64,000 nucleotides of DNA from Alphaproteobacteria bacterium (lineage in GTDB: Bacteria; Pseudomonadota; Alphaproteobacteria; GCA-2731375): positions 256,001-320,000 of the forward strand of contig CBDDBZ010000038.1 of assembly GCA_965225945.1 (NCBI GenBank). The letters are read 5' to 3'. The position numbers were made by a program, and so were the translations under genes. Under the pieces are notes generated by a model. The model had not been told where the DNA came from and did not search any database. It saw only the letters and a program-made list of their open reading frames with translations. Positions 1,325 through 42,318 of this stretch are shown piece by piece (the stretch's first letter is position 1; every line of letters starts with the position of its first letter).

Positions 1325-1445
1325 GGTGACGGCGGCCAGTGTCGGGAGGAGCGTGAGCAGGAGGGCCTGGCGGAGCATGGTGGAGGGTGTAGCAGGGCGA
1401 GGTTGGCACGCATGCGATGGCATCGATCGGCCGAATGTCGGCTTC
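1325..1445 (-). pseudogene. Leader and signal-peptide remnant of a thermonuclease-family gene (MLRQALLLTLLP...)
   Basis: Reverse complement aligns with 21006-21125, where the same leader continues into a thermonuclease N-terminus. Confidence 0.6.
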
Positions 1446-1530
1446 GCTCGGATCACGTCCGATGTACCCCCAATATTCCCCGTAATATTAGCTGATGCCG
1501 AACGGAGAATCATGACCCGACCCGGACATC
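1432..1530. repeat. Dispersed intergenic repeat, copy A (GAATGTCGGCTTC...TGACCCGACCCGGACAT)
   Basis: Shares GGGTCATGATTCTCCGT and GAAGCCGACATTCGGCC (on the minus strand) with the split copy at 14273-14291 / 19478-19497 / 21005-21022. Confidence 0.7.
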
Positions 1531-9593: not shown

Positions 9594-10547
9594 ATGATCA
9601 TCGCCGCCGACAACATCGACAGGCTTCTGGCCGTCGAGATGCGCCGTCAAGGCATCCCGCGCGGCTTCAAGTGGCGCATCTTCGAGATCGCCCGGCGATG
9701 GCAGGGCGAGCCGCTGTGCCTGGCCGCGGCCCGGCCACTGATCGGCACGCCGATGCGCGTTGCCCTCGTCACCGGCGCCTGGGTGCCGGAGCATATGCCG
9801 GTCGGGGAAAGCGACGGGCCCTACGGGAGCGTGATACTGGCCCGAGCCCTAGCACGGATCGGCCATGCTGTGACGATTTACACCGACCGCGAGACCGCGC
9901 CGCCGATCAATTTCCTGGCCGACTACCTTGGCGGGGAGGCCACGGTCGAGGCGGTCGGACGCGACGACGACGGCGCCAATTCGCGAATCGCCGAGGAAAA
10001 CGACGCCTTCATCGCCGTCGAGCGCCTGGGCCGGAACGTCAACGGCATTCTGTACAGCATGAACGCCTTTCCACTCTCCGAGCATCAGCATGCCTTCGAC
10101 GACTGCGTTGATATGATGCGGGCCGCCGGCAAACCGGCCATTTCGATCACCGACGGTGGCAACGAGATCGGCTACGGCGTCATACGTGACGCCCTGATCG
10201 AAGCCCTGCCGGACCTCAATCTCGCCGATAAGACGGCGTGCGGCGGCGGAATCGTCTCGGCTACTGAATGCGATGTGCTAGTCGTCGCGAACTCCTCCAA
10301 CCTCGGCGCCTACGGCGTCGTTGCCGGACTGGCGCTTCTGACAGGAGATGCAACGCTATGCCATGAGCCAGCGGAGGAACTGGCGCTGCATCACGTCGGT
10401 GTCGGTCTGGGACTGATCGACGGCGGCGGGGGTGGCGCGGTCGCTGCTTGCGACGGTATACCCGCCGAGGCCAGCGCCGCCGTCGTGCACCTCGTCCAGA
10501 ACATCGTCGAGCGAGCCCTCGAGGCGCCGCGCGAGCGCCCCTTCTGA
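9594..10547 (+). CDS. D-glutamate cyclase C-terminal domain-like protein (DUF4392)
   Basis: GESDGPYG, AVERLGRN, DGGNEIG and SSNLGAY motifs. Confidence 0.75.
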   Translation: MIIAADNIDRLLAVEMRRQGIPRGFKWRIFEIARRWQGEPLCLAAARPLIGTPMRVALVTGAWVPEHMPVGESDGPYGSVILARALARIGHAVTIYTDRETAPPINFLADYLGGEATVEAVGRDDDGANSRIAEENDAFIAVERLGRNVNGILYSMNAFPLSEHQHAFDDCVDMMRAAGKPAISITDGGNEIGYGVIRDALIEALPDLNLADKTACGGGIVSATECDVLVVANSSNLGAYGVVAGLALLTGDATLCHEPAEELALHHVGVGLGLIDGGGGGAVAACDGIPAEASAAVVHLVQNIVERALEAPRERPF

Positions 10548-10704
10548 GCCCTATCCGACGTCGGCCTCGCACAGTGGAGCGCCGCCGCGACCTTCTCTCG
10601 GTGAGCGCCCGGCAACGCTTGAAGATCCATGCGCCTCGGCATTGGCCGATACAGAGCCGTGTCGGGGGACGATTGCCGAGAGTGGTTCGCGAACCGGGTC
10701 GGAT

Positions 10705-10772
10705 GAACTTCCGCAGCTGGGGGTATATTCCCCGTCGAGGCGACACGGCCGCTTAGGCGATTGGTAGCCAGC
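10705..10772. repeat. Dispersed repeat, copy C (inverted relative to copy B)
   Basis: Reverse complement GGCTACCAATCGCCTAAGCGGCCGTGTCG...TATACCCCCAGCTGCGGAAGT matches 2454-2518. Confidence 0.75.
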
Positions 10773-10935
10773 ATTTTCCGTTAGCGGAATCTAATTTCGG
10801 GAAGAGGAATGCGAGCGACAGTGCCTCATGACGCATCAAGGGCAACGGATTGAATTGACAGCCCCACCGAGGCTCTATAGCGTCCCTGATGATCGCGCCC
10901 GGGACCTCGACTCGATGACGCAGGGGGAGGAGAAC

Positions 10936-12066
10936 ATGAGAAAAAGCAGGCTTGGTCGCGCGTCGGCTGTCGCCGTCGCCGCCGCGTTCACGGTTGCAAC
11001 GCTGATGATTGGCGTGTCCACCGCCGCCAACGCCGAGTTGCAAAAGGTGATCATCCGCGTCTCGGTCGATCTGCCGCCGCCGCCTCATCCGACGGCCATC
11101 GCCATGGAATGGTTCAAGAAGCAGGTGGAAGCGCAATTCCCCAAGGGCAGCGAGGTGCGCAATTTCTACGCCGGCGCCCTTTACAAGGACCCGGACGCCT
11201 TGTCGGCGATGACCCAGGGCAACCTGGAGATGGGCTGGCTCGTCACGGGCAAGACCGCAGCCACCGACATCTGGCTGAGCATCATCGGCCAGCCCGGTGT
11301 CCTTACCACCGTGGCCGCCATTCATGATCTCCCGAACCAGCCCACAGGTAAGATGCTGCTCGATCGGCTGCGTGAGAAGCACGGCATCGTTCCCTTCGGA
11401 TTCGCCGACCTGAGCTTCGCCCTCGCTATGGCGGGCAAAGAGCGTCTGCTCACCGTGGACTCGTTCAAAGGCAAGAAGATCCGCACATTCGCCGCGGCAG
11501 TGAACCCGGTCGTGGCCTCCTGGGGTGCCTCGCCGGTGGTGATGTCGTTCGGCGACGTGCCCAGCGCCCTCGAGTCCGGAGTTCTCGATGGCATAATCAC
11601 CTCCATCGGGGGCTGGCGCTCCATCACCGAGCAAACCCCCTACTATACCATTGCAGGCATCTCCACGGTCACGTTCGACAACTACTGGGTCGGCGCGAGC
11701 GCACAATGGTTCAACAACCTGAACCAGGATACGCAGGCCAAAATCAGGGAGCTCACCACCCAGGCCATCAGCTACCAGAACGAACTGAACTGGTGCAACG
11801 ACGAGTTCGCCATCCGAGAGTTCAAGGCGAAGACCCCGTCCGAGCCCGGAATCTACGTGGCCACAGCCGCGGAAGCGAAGCCGTTGCAGCAGGCTATCGG
11901 CAACAACGTGGCCAATTATCTCAAGGAAAAGCTGCCACAAGAGGCGCATGCCTGGGTCGACCGGTACCTGGAGGAAGGACGGGCTGCGTCCGCTCGCCTC
12001 GGCCCCGGCAGCGACCCGGTAGAGAGTCTGGACTGCGCCAAGCACGAGCCAGTCCTGAAGAGATAG
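10936..12066 (+). CDS. TRAP transporter substrate-binding protein (DctP family)
   Basis: RBS GGAGGAG, signal peptide, FKGKKIR and ALESGVLDG. Confidence 0.88.
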   Translation: MRKSRLGRASAVAVAAAFTVATLMIGVSTAANAELQKVIIRVSVDLPPPPHPTAIAMEWFKKQVEAQFPKGSEVRNFYAGALYKDPDALSAMTQGNLEMGWLVTGKTAATDIWLSIIGQPGVLTTVAAIHDLPNQPTGKMLLDRLREKHGIVPFGFADLSFALAMAGKERLLTVDSFKGKKIRTFAAAVNPVVASWGASPVVMSFGDVPSALESGVLDGIITSIGGWRSITEQTPYYTIAGISTVTFDNYWVGASAQWFNNLNQDTQAKIRELTTQAISYQNELNWCNDEFAIREFKAKTPSEPGIYVATAAEAKPLQQAIGNNVANYLKEKLPQEAHAWVDRYLEEGRAASARLGPGSDPVESLDCAKHEPVLKR

Positions 12067-12760: not shown

Positions 12761-14050
12761 ATGGGTGCTCTCCTCGTCAGTATCCTGACGTTTCTCGGCT
12801 CGGGCGTCACCATCGGCATCGCCATGGGGGCGGCGAGCATGCTGTTCATCCACTTCGATCCGCTGCTAGACGCCCGCGTGCTCTCCCAGAGCTTCTTTGC
12901 CTTTCTCGGCAGCTACAGCCTGATGGCCGTGCCGCTGTTCATTTTCGCCGGCTTCCTGATGGAACGAACCGGGATGATCCGCCAGCTCTTCGAGTTCGCC
13001 GAAGCGCTGGTGAGCTGGGTCTTTGGCGGCTTCGGGCTCGCCACGGTCACCACCTGCGTGCTCTTCAGCGCGATCTCCGGCTCCAGCGTCGCGGTCGCTT
13101 CCGCCATGAGCATCATCGCCATCCCGGAGATGCGCTTGCGCAACTACCCGGACTGGCTGTCGGCGGGCATCGTCGCCTCGGGCGGGGGGATCGGCCTGCT
13201 CATTCCGCCGAGCCTCTCCCTGATCATCTACGGCATCGCGACCGAGACCTCCATCGTGCGCCTGTTCATGGCCGGCGTCGTGCCCGGGCTTATGCTGGCC
13301 ACCGGGATGTACGTGGTGATCATCATCGCCGCGTGGCGCATCCCGGGCCTGGACCGCGGCGAGTTCCGGCTGAAGCCCCTGCTGACGAGCACCTGGGGCG
13401 CGCTGCCCGGTCTCGGTATGCCCGTGCTGGTGCTGGGTGGCCTTTACGGTGGGCTGTTCACGCCTACGGAGGCGGCGGCGGCGGCCTGCGGGTATGCGCT
13501 TGTCTACGGCCTCATCAGCGGGCGTGGACGGTTCCTGCGCGAGCTGTTGCCGGTTGCCGCCCGCGCCATGAATCTCTCGGCCGTGGTCTTCTTTCTGGTC
13601 GGCAGCGTGGGCATATTCCAGTTCGTCGCCGCCAATCAGGCTTGGCCCCAGCAGCTGGCGCAGATGGTCATCGACATGCATCTGGCGCCCCTGCCGTTCC
13701 TCTTTGGCTACCTGGGCCTGCTGCTGATGCTCGGCACCTTTCTGGACGGCATCGCCATGATCCTGTTGACCGTGCCGGTGGTCTTTCCGGTGGCCCGCGC
13801 ACTCGGCATCGATCCGATCCACCTCGGCATCATCGTGACCATGGGCGTGGAGCTCAGCGTCATCACCCCGCCGGTCGGCTTCAACCTCTATGCGGTGAGC
13901 GGCATTGCCCGGATCCCCATCCAGACGGTGCTTCGCGGAGCCATGATTTTCTTTCTGTCCGATCTCGCCGTGACCCTCATCATCGTCCTTGTGCCGGAGT
14001 TCTCCACATGGCTCCCCAAGACGCTGAGCGCCCCATCTCCGTTCGAGTAG
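12761..14050 (+). CDS. TRAP large permease (DctM family)
   Basis: AVPLFI, AISGSSVA, LIPPS, FTPTEAA and ITPPVGFNL. Confidence 0.92.
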   Translation: MGALLVSILTFLGSGVTIGIAMGAASMLFIHFDPLLDARVLSQSFFAFLGSYSLMAVPLFIFAGFLMERTGMIRQLFEFAEALVSWVFGGFGLATVTTCVLFSAISGSSVAVASAMSIIAIPEMRLRNYPDWLSAGIVASGGGIGLLIPPSLSLIIYGIATETSIVRLFMAGVVPGLMLATGMYVVIIIAAWRIPGLDRGEFRLKPLLTSTWGALPGLGMPVLVLGGLYGGLFTPTEAAAAACGYALVYGLISGRGRFLRELLPVAARAMNLSAVVFFLVGSVGIFQFVAANQAWPQQLAQMVIDMHLAPLPFLFGYLGLLLMLGTFLDGIAMILLTVPVVFPVARALGIDPIHLGIIVTMGVELSVITPPVGFNLYAVSGIARIPIQTVLRGAMIFFLSDLAVTLIIVLVPEFSTWLPKTLSAPSPFE

Positions 14051-14190
14051 ACGACCACGACACCGATCTCCTTCAGGTCGTCCTCGCCAAGGTAAGGCAA
14101 TGCATCGAGATCGATCTCGTTCTCGGTGAACACGTCCACGTATTTACCGAGGCCTAGATCGTCCAACCAGTTGGCGATGTCGTGCGCCAT
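14051..14190 (-). pseudogene. N-terminal SAM-domain fragment, typical of SAM-adenylate cyclase proteins
   Basis: MAHDIANWLDDLGLGKYVDVFTENEIDLDALPYLGEDDLKEIGV, truncated at the dctM stop. Confidence 0.75.
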
Positions 14191-14435
14191 TCCTGCCTCA
14201 ATGAGACCTGGTCTAAATGGAAGCTTAGGTGCATTTTGGCCCGCGTAATCCATTGGCACAGGCCGGGTCGCCGAATGTCTCTTGTGGGTCAAGGCACTAA
14301 ATCGCTACGCGATATTTCGTGGGTGAGGGGTCATGGCGCGCCCAGCCACCGCCGTGGATTTCATCGATAACACTTCGAGCGCTCGTTCCTGATCATTGAG
14401 GTCTCGTCGACCTCAACTCAGGAAGGAGCATCTCC

Positions 14436-15347
14436 ATGACGACGACGATGACCCCATTGCGCCAGCGCATGATCGAGGACATGAACGCCCGCAAGCTGGT
14501 GGCGGGCACGCAGAAGGGCCACCTCCGCGGCTGCGAGCGCTTTGCCGTGTTTCTGGATGGCTCGCCCGATACCGCCGTGGCCGAGGACGTCCGCCGCTTC
14601 CAAGTTCATCTGGCGGAGAGCGGGATGAGCATCTGCAACCGCAACCGGACCATGACCGGGCTCCGTTTTCTGTTCCGCGTGACCTTGCGACGGCTCGATC
14701 TCGCGGCGGAGATCTTCCACATCCGCGAGCCGCAAAGGCTGCCGAAGGTGATGAGCCAGGACGAGGCCAAGCGTCTCCTGGTGATGGCCCGGAACCTGAA
14801 GACCCGCGCGCTGCTCTCGCTCGCCTATGGCTGTGGCATGCGAGCGGGCGAGGTGGTGCGCTTGCGCGTCGGCGACATCGACAGCGCCCAAGGCATCATC
14901 CGTATCGTCCAGGGCAAGGGCCGCAAGGACCGTAACGTGATGCTGTCGAAGGGACTGCTGGCGTTGCTCAGGCAATGGTGGCGGGCCCGCCCGACCCGCC
15001 ACGACGCGGGCGTGCCTGCGCAACAGCGCTGGCTCTTCCCCGGTCGCGAGGCGGGGCGGCACGCCACGACCCGGCAGTTCAGCCGGTTGTTCGAGGAGGC
15101 GGTGGCCGCCGCCGGGATCACCAAGCACGTGACGCCGCACTCGTTGCGGCATTCCTTCGCCACCCACTTGCTCGAGCGCGGCACCGACATTCGCTACATC
15201 CAAGCGCTTTTGGGCCACGACAAGCTCGACACCACGGCGCGTTACACGCGGGTCGCGACCGGCACCATCGCCGCCATCGAGAGCCCGCTGGATCTCTTGT
15301 CCAAGCCCGGTGGCAAGAAGCGGAAGAAGGCCAAGCCGTCGGGGTAG
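14436..15347 (+). CDS. Tyrosine recombinase with N-terminal SAM-like domain (IS91-associated type)
   Basis: GMRAGE, GKGRKDR, HSLRHSFATHLLE, LLGH and TTARY. Confidence 0.92.
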   Translation: MTTTMTPLRQRMIEDMNARKLVAGTQKGHLRGCERFAVFLDGSPDTAVAEDVRRFQVHLAESGMSICNRNRTMTGLRFLFRVTLRRLDLAAEIFHIREPQRLPKVMSQDEAKRLLVMARNLKTRALLSLAYGCGMRAGEVVRLRVGDIDSAQGIIRIVQGKGRKDRNVMLSKGLLALLRQWWRARPTRHDAGVPAQQRWLFPGREAGRHATTRQFSRLFEEAVAAAGITKHVTPHSLRHSFATHLLERGTDIRYIQALLGHDKLDTTARYTRVATGTIAAIESPLDLLSKPGGKKRKKAKPSG

Positions 15348-15723
15348 CGCCGCCGGGTCGTGACAGCCCATGGGTTGGAGGTCGCGGAAATCTTCCGCGA
15401 CTTCGGCCCCGCCTGGCGTCGGGCCAATGCCGGCCACGTGAGCTTGCAACAGCTGAAGGTCATGAGCGCCATCGAGCGCTGCCGCACGGCCGCGCTCGGC
15501 GGGCACGTCTTGGCCTGCGATGTCAATCGGCGTTGAACATTGACCCCCTATCGGCGTGCAATGTTGACCCCTTTGGGGATGCACGGCGGAGGTCGTACAG
15601 GTAGTCCATAGGAGGGGCCCGCGCGCGGGCCGACGCGCCCACCACGCGGCTGGCGGCGGACCGCGCGTGGGAGGTTCCTGTGGGCCCACCTGGGTGACCG
15701 GGCGGCAGGTGGATCGGTTGCCT

Positions 15724-16452
15724 TTAGGACCGATTCTTGAAGCGCCAGGAGTCGTTTCCGGTCTCGATGATCTCGCAGTGGTGCGTCAGACGATCGAGGA
15801 GCGCGGTGGTCATCTTGGCGTCGCCGAAGACGGACGGCCATTCGCCGAAGGTCAGGTTGGTGGTGACGATGATCGAGGTGCGCTCGTAGAGCCGGCTGAC
15901 GAGGTGGAACAGCAGCTGGCCTCCGGTTTGGGCGAAGGGCAGGTAGCCGAGCTCGTCGAGGATGACGAGGTCGCGCCGGGCCAGCTGATCGGCGAGCCGG
16001 CCCTGGCGGCCGGCGCGGGCTTCGGCCTCGAGCCGGTTGACCAGGTCGACGACGTTGAAGAAGCGGCCCCGGGCGCCATCGCGGATGCAGGCCCGCGCGA
16101 TGGCGACGGCGAGATGGCTCTTGCCGGTGCCGGTGCCGCCGATCAGCACGGCGTTGCGCTGGTTGGCCAGGAAGCCGCCGACCGCCAACTCGCGGACCAG
16201 CGGCTCGTTGACCGGGGTGTCGGTGAAGTCGAAGTCGGCCAGCTCCTTGGCCAGCGGCAGCTTGGCGCCACTCATCTGGTACTTGATGGATCGCGCCTGC
16301 TTGTCGGCGATCTCGGCCTTCAACAGCTCGCCGATGATTCGCTGCATCGGATGCTGGCGCTTGAGGCCGTCGGCGAGCACCTCGTCGAACGCGTCGCGCA
16401 TGCCGGCGAGCTTGAGTGCGGCCATCATCTCCAGGACCTCATGGCGCTCCAT
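15724..16452 (-). CDS. istB: IS21 helper ATPase
   Basis: Walker [18 protein letters not shown] and ALLDRLTHH. Confidence 0.95.
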
Positions 16453-17950
16453 GGCCGACCCCCCTCAAGCGGTCGTAGCGGGTGCAATCGGCCACCGGCT
16501 CAAAGCGAAGACGCAGGTTCGCGGGCGTCGGGATCGGCGCCGTCTCGGACGGCTGGCGCCGACGATTGAGGATGTTGAGCACGACGTCGGCGCTGCACAC
16601 GCCGCCAGCGAGCGCCTCGGCACAGGCGGCCTCCACCGCCGCCAGCCCATCCGCCAGCACGGCGGTGAGGATCTCGACCATCTGCCTGTCGCCGTCGTCG
16701 TGGCCGGCGAGCCGGACGCGCACGCGACCCAGGGCGCCGGGCAGCGCCCAGTCCTTGAACGGCGCGCCGTTACGAAGCGCACCGGGCTTCCTCGCCAGCA
16801 CGGGCACGTAGTGCCACGGGTCATAGACGGTCTGGTCGCGGCCGAAGCGCCGGGCATGCTCGGCGACGATCTCGCCGTCCTGGCGGATGACGATGCGATC
16901 GGCGTAGGCATGGACCTCGACCGGACGGCCGACGGCGCGCGCCGCCACGCTGTACTTGTTGCTGTCGAAGCGCACCAGGCAGGTCTTCGACACCGACGCC
17001 GGGACCGCGTGGAAGCCGTCGAACGGCCCGCGATAGCCGACCAGGGACGGACGCTCGTCCTCGAACACCTGCCAGACAGTCCTGTCCTTGAACACCGGGT
17101 GGGGATGACGCCGGGCGTAGGCGACGCACTGGTCCAAGAGCCAGGCGTTGAGCTCGTCGTAGGTCTTGAAGCGCAGCCGCGGGGTGAAGAACCGACCGCG
17201 GATGATCCCGACCTGGTTCTCGACCTGCCCCTTCTCCCATCCCGCTCCCGGCGTGCATGCTGTCGGTTCGACCAGGTAGTGGCCACACATCTGCACGAAG
17301 CGCCGGTTGAACGCGCGCTCCTTGCCGATGAGGACGGTCTGCACCGCCGTCTTCATGTTGTCGTAGATGCCTCGCCGGCAGGCACCCTGGAACAGCCGGA
17401 ATGCCCGGTCGTGGGCGTCGAACACCATCTCCTGGCTCTCGCGCGGATAAGCGCGGACGAAGAACATTCGGCTGTGGCACAGCCGGACGTGCGCGACCTT
17501 GACCTTGGTCGTCACCCCCGCCAGCACCACGTACTCGTGGCTCCAGTCGAACTGATAGGCCTCGCCCGGCGAGAACACCAACGGCACATAGGTCTGCGCC
17601 GTCGATGCCGAACGGCGCCACCGCCACGCCTTGGCGTAGCGCCGCACCGCGTCGTAGCCGCCGCCATAGCCCAGACCCTCGAGGGCTTCGGAGATCCGTA
17701 GCAGCGTCAGCCGCTCCCGCTTCGACTTGGTCTCGTTGGCCTCCAGCATCCGCTCCAGCTCGGCCGTCCACGGCCCCAGCTTCGGCATCGGCTGGACCCG
17801 CCGGTCGTAGGTGAACGCCGTCGCCTGCGAACGGATCACCTTGCGCACCGTGTTGCGCGAGACCTTCACGTCCCGCACGATCTCCTTGATCGGCTTCCCC
17901 TTGACGAAATACTCCCGCCGGATCCGCGCTATCGTCTCCACGACCAACAT
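16439..17950 (-). CDS. istA: IS21 transposase
   Basis: N-terminal [16 protein letters not shown] and WEKGQVE. Confidence 0.95.
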
Positions 17951-19497
17951 CCCCCACCACCTCGTCCGCCCAAAAACGAGGTGACTTGGACTAGCCAGGC
18001 TCAGGGGGTCAAATTTGGACGCCGATCACCCCTCAACAGGGGTCAACTTTGCACGCCGTTCCACAGCCTGCGAGGACTGCGAGCACACCCAGATCGCCTA
18101 CAACTCGTGCCGCAACCGCCATTGCCCCAAGTGCCAGGGGGCGGCGGCCCGGGACTGGTTGGCCGAGCGCGAGGCCGAACTACTGCCCGTCCCCTACTAC
18201 CATCTCGTCTTCACCCTGCCGGCGGCGATCGCCGACATCGCGTACCAGAACAAGGCCGTCGTCTACGACATCCTGTTCAAGGCGAGCGCCGAGACCATGA
18301 TCACCATCGCCGCCGATCCAAAGCACCTCGGCGCCAAGATCGGCATCACCGCCGTGCTCCACACCTGGGGCTCGGCCATGACGCTTTACGGCGCCGTGCT
18401 CGGACCGATGGCGCACCGGCGCCTCACCACACATCCACATGATCGTGCCCGGCGGCGGGGTCTCTCCGGACGGCACGGAATGGATTGCCTGCCGGCCCGG
18501 CTTCTTCTTGCCCGTCCGCGTGCTCTCGCGCCTCTTCCGCCGGCTCTTCATCGAGAAGCTCGCCGCCGCCCACGAGACCGAACGTCTGAAGTTCTTCGCC
18601 GAGCACGCGGGCCTCGCCGAACCGGCGGCGTTCGGCACCTTCCTCGCGCCCATGCGCAAGAGTGAATGGGTCGTCTATGCCAAGCGCCCCTTCGGCGGGC
18701 CCGAGGCCGTGCTCGCCTACCTCGCCCGATACACCCACCGCGTCGCCATCTCCAACCGCCGCTTGCTCCGCCTCGACAACGGCGCCGTTACCTTCACCTA
18801 CAAGGACTACCGCCGCGACGGCGCCGAGCGCTACGGGACCATGACCCTCGATGTCGCGGAGTTCATCCGCCGCTTCCTCATGCACGTCCTGCCCAAGGGC
18901 TTCCACCGCATCCGACACTACGGCCTCTTTGCAAACGGCAACCGCGCCGCCAACATAAAACGCGCTCGCGAACTGCTCGGCGGACCACCGGCGCCCGACG
19001 CCAGCGAGGAAGAGGCCTCGGAGCCTCCCGAGGACCAACGCCAGGGCGCCCGACCGTGCCCCCGTTGTGGCGGTCCCATGATCGTCGTCGAGGTCTTCGA
19101 GGCCGGCTGTCAACCAAAGGCCCGTTCACCGCCGAAGGCCATCGATAGCTCATGACACCGACCCAAAACATCAGCCACCTTCCCCGCCGAGCCTCGGCGC
19201 TCGACTTCGCTCGCCCGGGACACCGAAAACGGCGGCATCGTTGGCCGCCCCGGCCCCGCTCGTGCCCCCCTCGGCAACGCTTCACCGCGCTCGACGATCT
19301 CCTTATGGCGCCTCACGCCCCATATGCGGGTCGTCCAGACGACACCACCATCGACGCCACGCTCAAATCCCCATAGCGACGCCTGTATCCCGCGATTTCG
19401 TGCCTTGGCGCTTCTCGGACGCCGGCAAACACCGCGCCTCACTCCCTATGCCGGCAAGGCATCCGAGAAACCTGCACATGATTCTCCGTCAAGCATC

Positions 19498-21003
19498 TTC
19501 TAATGGAGCGTCCGGACCTGGGCGTGTTCCGGACGTCGATTCGGCGAAAGATGGTGTATCGCGGCGGCTGTGCCTGATGATATCAGGATGAGCGCAGCCC
19601 CTTCACGCATGATCGTTGAATCGGGGTCGCCCTGACCTCGAACATCGAGAAAGGAGCGACGACGATGGCACATTTTGTAGGTCTGGATGTTTCGGTGAAG
19701 GAGACGGCGGTATGCGTCGTCGACGAGGTTGGCGAGGTGGTGTTGGAGCGGAAAGTACCGACCGAGCCGGATGACATCGTCACGCTGCTGACCTCGATCG
19801 GCGAGGCCTATGGCCGGGTCGGGATCGAAGCCGGTCCGCTCTCGCAATGGCTGGTCAACGGTCTGGCTGCTACCGGGCTGCCGGTTGTCTGCGTCGAGAC
19901 TCGGCACATGCAAGCGCTGCTCAAGGGGCAGCAGATCAACAAGAGCGACCGCAACGATGCACGCGGCATCGCCCAGATGATGCGGGTCGGGCTGTTCAAG
20001 CCGGTGCATGTGAAGACCCTGGTTGTCCAGGAGCAGCGGATGCTGCTGACCAGCCGCAAGCTGCTCCAGAGAAAACTGCTCGACGTCGAGAACGATCTAC
20101 GCGGGACGCTGCGCAACTTCGGTCTCGAGGTGGGCAAGGTCAGCACCCGCGGGTACGAGGCGCGGATCCGCGAGCTGGTCGAAGATTTTCCGAAGTTGGC
20201 CGCTATCGTGGAACCGCTGCTCACCGTCCGGCGAGTGATGCGCCAGCAATTCGCGGTCCTCCACAAAATGGTGCTCGACACGGTCCGCCATGACCCGGTC
20301 TGCCGACGGCTCATGACGGCACCCGGCGTCGGCGTGGTCGTCGCGCTGACCTACCGGGCTACCATCGATCAGCCGCAGCGCTTCGTTCACTCCAGGGCGG
20401 TCGGCGCGCATGTCGGCCTGACGCCGAAGCGCTTCCAGTCCGGCGAGATCGACTATGATGGTTGCGTGTCCAAGTGCGGCGACAGCATGCTCCGCACGAT
20501 GCTGTACGAGGCCGCGCAGTCCCTCCTCACCCACGGCCGGAAATGGTCCTGGCTGAAGGCGTGGGGCATGCGAGTGGCCCAGCGACGTGGCATGCGCCGT
20601 GCCATCGTCGCCGTCGCGAGGCGCCTGGCCGTAGTTCTGCACCGCATGTGGGTCGACGGCACCGAGTTCCGCTGGAGCAACGGCCCTGCTGACGCCGTCA
20701 AGGCGGATTGAACCTTCGACTGTACTGACAAGGAGATCAACGAGTTCTGCTTAGGCAGAGAGATGTCCTCACGGGGACGACGGGTGGGGTGAGTTCGTAA
20801 TGTCGGTAGACCCTGCCGCTGACCGGCGGCAAGGACGCGCGAAAGATTGAACCGCCTCATCCTCTGATCCCATCATGAGGTGGCCACGCGCCAACCTCGA
20901 AGAGAAGCAAGAGCCCCGTGCGGCAACATCCGCCAGTGCGGAACGACGTGAAGAAGGAATATGGCATGACGTAACCAGAAAGGGCTTGACCGAGGACGCG
21001 ATA
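19498..21003 (+). mobile_element. IS110-family (IS1111-like) element with long non-coding ends; boundaries approximate
   Basis: Transposase ORF; subterminal GCGTCC / GGACGC; outward TTGACC at 20986 and TCTAAT at the left end; ~290 bp non-coding 3' region. Confidence 0.7.
19665..20711 (+). CDS. IS110-family DEDD recombinase
   Basis: VGLDVS, GIEAG, KSDRNDA, APGVG and GLTPKRFQSG. Confidence 0.93.
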   Translation: MAHFVGLDVSVKETAVCVVDEVGEVVLERKVPTEPDDIVTLLTSIGEAYGRVGIEAGPLSQWLVNGLAATGLPVVCVETRHMQALLKGQQINKSDRNDARGIAQMMRVGLFKPVHVKTLVVQEQRMLLTSRKLLQRKLLDVENDLRGTLRNFGLEVGKVSTRGYEARIRELVEDFPKLAAIVEPLLTVRRVMRQQFAVLHKMVLDTVRHDPVCRRLMTAPGVGVVVALTYRATIDQPQRFVHSRAVGAHVGLTPKRFQSGEIDYDGCVSKCGDSMLRTMLYEAAQSLLTHGRKWSWLKAWGMRVAQRRGMRRAIVAVARRLAVVLHRMWVDGTEFRWSNGPADAVKAD

Positions 21004-21072
21004 GAGAAGCCGACATTCGGCCGTCGGCCCCCGCCGCATGCGCGCCATCCCGGCCCTGCTACACTCCCCACC

Positions 21073-41865: not shown

Positions 41866-42318
41866 GTGTGCCTGGCATGGCGCTGATCTAGGAGATGGAA
41901 GTTCTCTACGGGCCGTAACGACCGGAACCGATAGCTGAAGGCAACTGCGTCGCCGCGAGGCGGGGTGGGGAGGAAGCGGGAGGCAAAATCTGGAGCGGAC
42001 GAACAGAAACCGGATATCAGGCCGGTGCGATGGGGTAAGCCAGCAATGGATGGCGAGGCCCGATAGTCGTTCGGACGTCGCATTGGTAAATCCGGCCGCG
42101 ACCGGAGGAAAGATCAGCGTCTTACCCAGGGAGATCTCCAGCGCTCTCGGGCGATCCGAGTAGCGAACCGGCGACGGGGAGCGATGGCGGTGGAGAAGTC
42201 AGCCGAGGCCATAGTAGGGGCCGAGAGGCGCCGAAGGGCCGAATCCGAGTAGCAAGGAGCAGTCTGGATCAACTCGATGAGCGTGGAGCGGCGGCAAGGC
42301 GGTGTTTATCAACTGGAC

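Follow-up and report, generated by a model that had tools for sequence, protein, structure and literature searches.

An IS91-family element carrying a tyrosine recombinase gene, found after an oriented CA-ending motif in an alphaproteobacterial genome

Structure of the element and its empty site

We analyzed a stretch of 64,000 nt (hereafter the window, to which all coordinates refer unless a contig or locus is named) from an assembly of an alphaproteobacterium (GCA_965225945.1, contig CBDDBZ010000038.1, positions 256,001 to 320,000), in which an intergenic repeat is interrupted by a mobile element. The insert, as read from the window sequence, occupies 14292-19478 (5,187 bp). It is a member of a subgroup of the IS91 family in which a gene for an IntI/Xer-like tyrosine recombinase (int) lies directly upstream of a gene for a Y2 HUH transposase (tnpA), and its length is 2,634 bp after a nested IS21-family element and one copy of the IS21 target duplication are subtracted. 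The matches to Pfam and NCBIfam models agree with the gene pair named in an earlier annotation of this locus (hereafter the original prediction), which had overlooked the nested IS21, the frameshift in the IS91-type gene, and an IS110-family element in the same repeat copy. The features of the element and of the repeat are as follows.

1334-1518, minus strand: uninterrupted repeat copy, used in the original prediction as the model of the empty site (window comparison)
14275-14291, plus strand: left half of the target, a repeat module ending in ...ATGTCTCTTGTGGGTCA, with GGGTCA at 14286-14291 (window and empty-site joint)
14292-14293, plus strand: copy-specific "coupling" dinucleotide, AG in this copy and absent from the empty site (copies and empty-site joint)
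14294-14317, plus strand: left end with the 12-nt terminal repeat GCACTAAATCGC, the inverted partner of 19392-19403 (sequence comparison)
14436-15347, plus strand: int, tyrosine recombinase of 303 aa (Pfam Phage_integrase, 1.4e-44)
15360-15520, plus strand: 5' piece of the IS91-family tnpA coding for the zinc-binding N-terminus, cut by IS21 (sequence)
15521-18065, minus strand: nested IS21-family element with istA (16439-17950) and istB (15724-16452) (IstA/IstB domains)
18074-19155, plus strand: rest of tnpA with the Y2_Tnp domain (1e-53); the downstream open reading frame (ORF) is 18439-19155
19366-19408, plus strand: conserved box AATCCCCATAG (19366-19376) and internal inverted repeat GCGATTTCGTGC (19392-19403), followed by CTTGG (copies and alignment)
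19412-19478, plus strand: right-end hairpin with arms at 19412-19423 and 19458-19469 and the 9-nt terminus ACCTGCACA at 19470-19478 (covariation)
19479-19545, plus strand: right half of the target, in which the repeat runs on as TGATTCTCCGTCAAGCATC... to the IS110 insertion point (window and empty-site joint)

The left junction reads GTGGGTCA up to 14291 and AGGCACTAAATCGC from 14292 (in a longer context, ...CTCTTGTGGGTCA as far as 14291), and the right junction reads ...GAAACCTGCACA up to 19478 and TGATTCTCCGTCAAGCATC from 19479 (...GAGAAACCTGCACA as far as 19478). The left CA is followed by AG and the right CA by TG. The uninterrupted copy, which the original prediction had taken at about 1495-1516 as a model of the site prior to insertion, serves this purpose well, as the reverse complement of 1494-1518 reads GGGTCATGATTCTCCGTTCGGCATC. 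We further aligned the contigs from 4 public runs to 13900-19900. In contigs of three of the four runs (X1, X15, and X17), position 14289 is joined directly to 19477, with 5,187 bases skipped and a two-letter ambiguity in the joint (CA at both ends of the skipped part). The record from X1, which is possibly the window's own sample, is 346 letters long and comprises 312 letters of the left side and 34 of the right side with zero bases between them; X15 and X17 are labelled with other organisms and studies. Thus, the empty site, GGGTCA directly followed by TGATTCTCC, exists as DNA; CA alone is shared and nothing is duplicated. Relative to the empty site, the right-hand TG of the window copy is the site's own, while the left-hand AG is foreign. 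The junction bases and the empty-site contigs therefore bear out exact insertion at GGGTCA with only CA shared and no target-site duplication, as originally predicted; the junction sequences given then were exact, but the interval of 14273-19497 merely brackets 14292-19478. Additional support comes from three more genomic copies of the same element that share identical end bases, and from at least 14 other repeat copies whose alignments start at GGGTCA or a few bases away from it.

An intact int gene (303 aa) is present in each of the four copies of the window's family. In an alignment of the integrases of three families, R136, K161, H235, R238, H261, and Y270 are invariant, which we take to be the catalytic R-K-H-R-H-Y set. 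The best match of Int among the NCBIfam models was to the integron-integrase subfamily TIGR02249 (190.6 bits against a cutoff of 265), split over two stretches. On the other hand, tnpA in the window is both split by IS21 and frameshifted. The IS21 is flanked by an 8-bp target duplication (GCCTGCGA at 15513-15520 and 18066-18073), and the IS21-free form was detected in runs X15 and X17 as a joint of 15512 to 18066 with an overlap of 8 letters. The genome carries roughly 50 near-identical copies of this IS21, by which the assembly is unusually rich in insertion sequences. The frame is shifted by ~37 extra bases (roughly 18390-18426) directly before the HUH motif.

Both ends of the element are structured. 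The left end bears a small subterminal palindrome (14299-14305 with 14309-14317), and the inverted partner of its 12-nt repeat sits just upstream of the right hairpin. The left-end repeat and the internal partner change jointly across families (e.g., AAGTCGC with GCGACTT). The four copies of the window's family do not differ at the right end, and in the subgroup the elements end with ...(C/A)ACA, 9 nt past the conserved hairpin. RNAalifold applied to 46 right ends returned only 4 pairs, a one-base gap shifting the outer stem in the alignment. When the stem was drawn by hand and the pairs were counted afterwards, a procedure that biases the count towards the drawing, the 12-pair stem was 90.4% paired in the 46 sequences with compensatory changes in 9 pairs; none of 500 shuffles was as high, and slid controls were 28-45% paired. 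The compensated helix contains a conserved mismatch, C opposite A, in 21 of the 46 sequences (columns 30/87 of alignment A2; 19420/19461 in the window). Searches of Rfam at gathering scores yielded no match on the repeat or on the element ends.

Copies, target motif, and relatives in other genomes

The genome (a 6.27-Mb assembly of 39 contigs) contains two families of the element. Family 1, to which the window copy belongs, has three more copies of 98.7-100% identity in BLAST comparison, all of which are free of IS21. They start with two variable bases followed by GCACTAAATCGC and end with ...CCTGCACA, and the ~37-base frameshift in tnpA is common to all four members. Family 2, a sister family with tnpA 78% identical to that of family 1, has ~20 copies of ~2.6 kb with the ends (two variable bases)GAACGAAACCGC... 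and ...CGCTTAACA. Its tnpA is intact (404 aa) and matches transpos_IS91 with 427.6 bits (cutoff 125), Y2_Tnp (5.5e-68), and Zn_Tnp_IS91 (4e-32).

The elements are ~99.9% identical to each other, whereas the copies of the repeat flanking them are only ~75-80% alike and the DNA beyond is unrelated. These figures argue for independent insertions rather than copies of one composite segment. It could be supposed that no targeting is involved and that the flanks are shared through a larger composite duplication or through homologous recombination between repeat copies. This genome is indeed rich in repeats and segmental duplications, and three pairs of copies do share flanks (such pairs were merged before counting). 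Nevertheless, besides the gap in identity between elements and flanks, the same flank consensus recurs in 37-44 flanks of other genomes and a precise empty site exists, and we regard the absence of targeting as very improbable.

Prior to counting, we dropped two family 2 copies with a group II intron as the left flank, one 104-nt tandem left-end fragment, and one member of each of two segmentally duplicated pairs, so that 21 distinct insertion sites remained (the register of one counted copy, at position 285853 of contig 34, is ambiguous by one base). CA precedes the insertion in all of the 21 sites, while only 5.1% of the genome positions are preceded by this dinucleotide, and G-Y-C-A precedes 16 of the 21 against 1.0% of the positions. 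The repeat itself is an intergenic mosaic. At least 14 more copies align from about GGGTCA-N2-ATTCTCC-TGTTAGC..., a second module ends with ...GATTCCTAGCCA, and the two modules are joined in places into an imperfect palindrome of ~190 bp. A GGGTCA-type word immediately precedes six of the 21 insertions, namely that of the window and five of family 2, and the repeat resumes in register to their right. For at least six, the preceding word is of the TAGCCA type from the second module, and at least five are in DNA that could not be assigned to the repeat. Altogether, the target is a short oriented motif, G-N-G-Y-C-A followed by N2-AGCnGACnT, rather than the repeat as such, and the mosaic repeat offers this motif at two module positions, GGGTCA and TAGCCA. 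Integration had been proposed to be site-specific for the repeat family; the specificity for a site stands, but the repeat itself is not the target, given that at least five of the 21 sites lie outside recognisable copies.

We considered whether the CA is part of the element rather than of the target. The two readings are inseparable, as both partners carry CA, and either way the crossover target contains CA. For six other insertions, no orthologous empty site was found in two genomes of the same genus, in which the matches were other insertion sequences or paralogues of 65-76% identity. In another species of the genus (locus L008, contig 4 of genome G002, ~1440-1510, minus strand), the window's left flank has an orthologue of 99% identity, in which a different insertion sequence with an IstA-like gene follows GTGGGTC, one base from the insertion point of the int-IS91 element. 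When 50 nt of the left flank were folded alone, no excess stability was detected (mean z of -0.43, with 4 of 36 flanks below -1.5), and for this reason we do not claim that the targets are hairpins. The two halves of the flank consensus are only weakly complementary, with pairing in 131 of 252 cells, compared with 86-103 of 252 in slid controls.

To extend the comparison, a collection of species-representative genomes was scanned with an alignment of three integrases. There were at least 591 candidate stretches, 550 of which encode an integrase relative among the matches listed, and the best 80 loci were kept. Right ends were located by the conserved box and the terminus, and left ends by the conserved left-end word. 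The 37 left flanks have A at -1 (33), C at -2 (35), C or T at -3 (33), G at -4 (31), and G at -6 (28). The 44 right flanks begin with two unconserved bases, followed by A (27) or T (13) at +3, G at +4 (23), C at +5 (28), G at +7 (35), C at +9 (34), and T at +11 (30). In 7 of the 37 elements the same dinucleotide stands on the left and on the right, where ~4 such cases are expected from the composition, and there is therefore no target duplication. The flanks of homologous elements, the comparison suggested in the original prediction, are thus related to each other both in this genome and elsewhere; a conserved motif within the flanks was rightly foreseen, but it is the broader ...G-Y-C-A rather than GGGTCA. 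Two related elements with the end ...CACC (loci L059 and L060) are preceded by ...CC rather than ...CA. A family-2-like element in another species of the genus ends with ...GCTTAACA directly before CG-CATCTCCGTCAAGCACC..., which places it at the corresponding site of a repeat copy 94% identical to that of the window.

Among the 70 loci with enough downstream DNA, a full single-frame tnpA follows int in 50, tnpA is broken or partial in 14, and none was found within 4 kb in 6. With a single frame in 50 of 70 loci, tnpA is apparently under selection, and both int and tnpA are evidently maintained. No close relative lacking int was found; a relative from Aminobacter that seemed to be such a case was rejected, since it carries a frameshifted int. 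In this plasmid record (locus L006, ~1986-2926), int lies upstream of an annotated IS91-family transposase, is split in two frames, and is unannotated, so that gene tables undercount the int-IS91 pairing. A search of the plasmid collection gave partial tnpA matches only, with none of 18 records covering 80% of the element.

The junction dinucleotide and possible routes of transposition

Two copy-specific bases lie between the CA of the target and the first conserved base of the left end. Among 18 copies of family 2 that differ in 7 of ~1,750 columns aligned beyond the junction, at least six left dinucleotides (AA, TA, AC, TG, AT, and CA) were found. The right-flank dinucleotides of family 2 vary too, with TA, AC, AT, TG, and CA among them, and the base after the left dinucleotide is G in 21 of 22 left ends. 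Point mutation cannot account for such diversity among near-identical copies, and the dinucleotide reflects the mechanism of movement. In the copy on contig 35, comparison with a paralogue fits the pattern seen in the window, namely a left dinucleotide of foreign origin and a right one that belongs to the target.

The tandem arrays provide a second line of evidence. In three arrays (in this genome, G000: contig 38, 202480-203260; contig 39, 252520-253700; contig 31, near 10315-11440), behind a full copy of family 2 stand one or several fragments of the 3' end of that copy, which are 365 bp and, once, 15 bp in length. The dinucleotides at the internal junctions equal that of the array's right flank (TA/TA/TA, TC..TC, and TT/TT), and in two of the three arrays the junction dinucleotide differs from the element-internal TA.

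The original prediction invoked rolling-circle transposition of the IS91 style, which does not fit without modification. In IS91, according to passages of a published account (PMC13181058), the conserved target tetranucleotide abuts oriIS, downstream of tnpA, and terIS, which carries a similar cleavage tetranucleotide, lies upstream. In the elements analyzed here, the conserved motif with CA adjoins the end upstream of int and tnpA, the look-alike of this motif is the downstream terminus, and the right flank starts with two variable bases, departing from the family's target-side rule of a tetranucleotide by oriIS. Besides the additional recombinase gene, the elements differ from IS91, IS801, and IS1294 in having G-N-G-Y-C-A with a conserved downstream half instead of CTTG or GTTC, a variable dinucleotide at one junction, and a right end in which an inverted copy of the left-end repeat, 75 bp inward of the terminus, precedes a tail with a hairpin.

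The Y2 transposase might still act alone if the roles of the ends were mirrored relative to tnpA. The CA motif by the left end would then be part of the origin, and the hairpin with ...CACA would be the terminator, with some imprecision left unexplained; the integrase would be an accessory factor for termination fidelity, multimer resolution, or regulation, like Orf121 in IS91. The elements share with IS91, IS801, and IS1294 a transposase with Y2_Tnp, Zn_Tnp_IS91, and transpos_IS91 matches, the last far above its cutoff, the absence of target duplication, subterminal palindromes at both ends, and a target motif (...YCA) resembling their own terminus (...ACA), as the target and terIS tetranucleotides resemble each other in the three elements (passages of PMC13181058). 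The tandem 3'-end fragments likewise resemble products of faulty initiation or termination. However, with one enzyme cutting a single strand in one fixed register, either the left or the right dinucleotide would be inherited. Since both vary, the plain IS91 scheme fails even when mirrored; a uniform single-strand cut cannot give a copy-specific left dinucleotide, and the dinucleotide at the array junctions is that of the right flank, not that of the element interior. Furthermore, the conserved flank is on the side opposite to that in IS91 (PMC13181058), the target is much longer than a tetranucleotide, and the window's family reached four sites with a frameshifted tnpA, albeit possibly through family 2 enzyme acting in trans. 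We regard transposition by the Y2 enzyme alone as unlikely.

A copy-specific sequence at the junction is more reminiscent of transposons moved by tyrosine recombinases. Tn916, CTnDOT, and Tn554 insert without target duplication, carry a junction sequence brought from the previous site, and move through a circular intermediate; their coupling or overlap sequences are 5-7 bp, they have no HUH gene, and they are much larger. The elements in this study share with them the R-K-H-R-H-Y set and the copy-specific coupling sequence, but only two positions vary. In a scheme of this type, the integrase alone would excise and integrate a double-stranded circle by staggered cuts flanking the two variable bases. 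The overlap would comprise CA, identical in both partners, and two tolerated mismatches, replication would place either dinucleotide at either junction, and the Y2 gene would have another role such as replication of the circle. Variation of both flanking dinucleotides among near-identical copies is fitted by this scheme as well as by the relay proposed below. The conservation of the target on both sides of the crossover over ~25 bp is more like an attachment site than a tetranucleotide, the placement of L059 and L060 after ...CC is expected if identity at the crossover is needed, and all four copies of the window's family combine a frameshifted tnpA with an intact int. On the other hand, the cuts of tyrosine recombinases are normally 6-8 bp apart, whereas the G that follows the dinucleotide in 21 of 22 left ends restricts the overlap to at most 4 bp. 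The scheme also leaves no role for a tnpA that appears to be selected, twenty near-identical copies point to copying over cut-and-paste, and the dinucleotide of the target is on the right at the only true empty allele, an outcome predicted half the time (n = 1). On balance, we consider movement by the integrase alone rather unlikely.

As the reading we favour, albeit tentatively (a probability of about 0.4), we propose a two-step relay in which the Y2 enzyme first produces a circular copy of the element, which the integrase then inserts at CA. In the first step, the Y2 enzyme would cut two bases past each CA, and the junction of the resulting circle would consist of the right end, two bases of the donor's right flank, and the left end. 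In the second step, the integrase would recombine the circle junction with the target at the phosphodiester just after CA, so that the left of the new copy would bear the dinucleotide of the donor, while the two bases of the target would stay on its right. The two cutting registers would thus belong to two enzymes, copy-out being assigned to Y2 and paste-in to the integrase. Such a division would explain why both genes are kept, why the copy number rises, and why neither dinucleotide is inherited unchanged. The products predicted by the relay are matched by the one true empty site, the paralogue comparison on contig 35, and all three arrays.

Several observations weigh against this proposal. 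No circle or circle-junction molecule was seen in the contigs of the public runs. A true empty site is available for one insertion only, the second case resting on a paralogue. The left dinucleotide of family 2 copies equals the right dinucleotide of some copy in 11 of 18 cases, where dinucleotide frequencies alone lead one to expect ~12, a chance-level result that favours neither side. AA, the commonest left dinucleotide (7 copies), has no extant donor. Not all of the 5' boundaries of the tandem fragments follow CA. We know of no IS91 enzyme shown to cut two bases beyond its terminal motif. Finally, the frameshifted tnpA in four copies of family 1 argues against a strict need for the element's own Y2 enzyme; these copies were possibly moved in trans by the enzyme of family 2, or by their own integrase alone.

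The recombinase and the right end also invite comparison with integrons, in which recombination takes place at structured single-strand sites. The right-end hairpin is imperfect and retains a conserved mismatch, and in this it recalls such sites, but the crossover lies outside the hairpin stem. Integron integrases are the family nearest to Int by profile, as well as in a published classification, passages of which place the IS91-linked recombinases beside the integron integrases and without the IntI-specific insertion (10.1101/542381). Consistently, the match to TIGR02249 is below the family cutoff and falls in two stretches, which indicates that Int lacks the insertion typical of IntI. No cassette array stood out beside int in the window, in which a dedicated search for attI, promoter, or array was not made. 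A hybrid route can be conceived, in which the HUH enzyme peels off a single-stranded circle, the right hairpin and the left-end repeat form an attC-like site, and the IntI-related recombinase inserts the folded strand by one exchange just after CA into REP-like repeat modules acting as chromosomal attachment sites. We judge this route quite unlikely. If true, the subgroup would show integron-type single-strand recombination coupled to a dedicated generator of single strands, and targets shared with IS110-family elements and group II introns would mark sites that are often single-stranded.

The layout of the element can be compared with that of Helitrons as well. In Helitrons, the gene points from the initiation end to a 3' end with a hairpin ~10 nt before the terminus, and insertion occurs at a fixed dinucleotide without duplication; these elements are eukaryotic, have a helicase fusion, and lack a tyrosine recombinase. 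The int-IS91 elements share with them the orientation of the gene towards the hairpin end and the duplication-free insertion at a fixed dinucleotide, but the termini differ.

Neighbouring mobile elements and wider significance

Apart from the int-IS91 element proposed to move by the two-step relay, the same repeat copy hosts another element.

19546-21009, plus strand: IS110-family element that interrupts this repeat copy and is separate from the int-IS91 element, with tnp at 19665-20711 (family matches)

We take this IS110-family element to be of the RNA-guided type. The genome has ~10 copies of it, including those on contigs 12, 21, 24, 26, 29, 33, 34, and 37 of G000, all at one position of the repeat, between GCGAAAG and CCGACATT, and the left end of one of them stands directly against the left flank word of a family 1 int-IS91 copy. 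Group II introns with Rfam matches for D1-D4 were also found on the opposite strand, their 5' ends abutting the left-end hairpin of int-IS91 elements. Such a placement occurs in two copies in this genome (G000 contig 9 near 32074, locus L103, 2386-2690, minus strand, and contig 38 near 212485) and in four other genomes (loci L055, L057, L072, and L078). The recurrent placement suggests that group II introns home to the left-end hairpin of int-IS91 elements, and three unrelated kinds of mobile elements converge on these structured sequences. Elsewhere in the window, group II intron domains at 41949-42239 (RF02001, 133 bits; RF01998, 51 bits) are the sole Rfam matches. Paralogous small ORFs follow both repeat copies, from 21074 onwards on the plus strand and from ~1378 downwards on the minus strand. 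They start with MLR..LLLTLLP, which resembles a signal peptide, and the longer one looks like a secreted nuclease by eye.

The gene pair itself is already catalogued. A plasmid record of Methylobacterium nodulans contains the same pair in the same order, a tyrosine recombinase followed by an "IS91-like element ISMno24 family transposase", with a right-end terminus of the ...CCGAAAACCTTCACA type, although the Int protein is just ~50% identical. In addition, passages of a survey report 245 IS91-XerD gene couples in 15 phyla (PMC9208149). Our literature search, which extended to passages rather than whole papers and had ISfinder outside its scope, brought up no account of the ends, target motif, or junction dinucleotide of this subgroup, and in the material covered the role of the second enzyme and the insertion sites of these elements were unreported. 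The element is a member of the IS91 family that departs from the target-side rule of its family and bears a junction signature of the recombinase type.

Transposases of the IS91 type are widely paired with a tyrosine recombinase, as seen from the at least 550 integrase relatives detected in this study and the couples counted in the published survey (PMC9208149). From the ~25 near-identical copies in one genome, the ends could be fixed to the base, along with an oriented target motif and a junction dinucleotide, the last of which constrains the chemistry and rules out the simplest IS91 scheme. For annotation, the ends and empty sites of int-IS91 elements should now be predictable. Sequence-specific insertion without duplication by an element of 2.6 kb may furthermore offer a possible route to targeted insertion.

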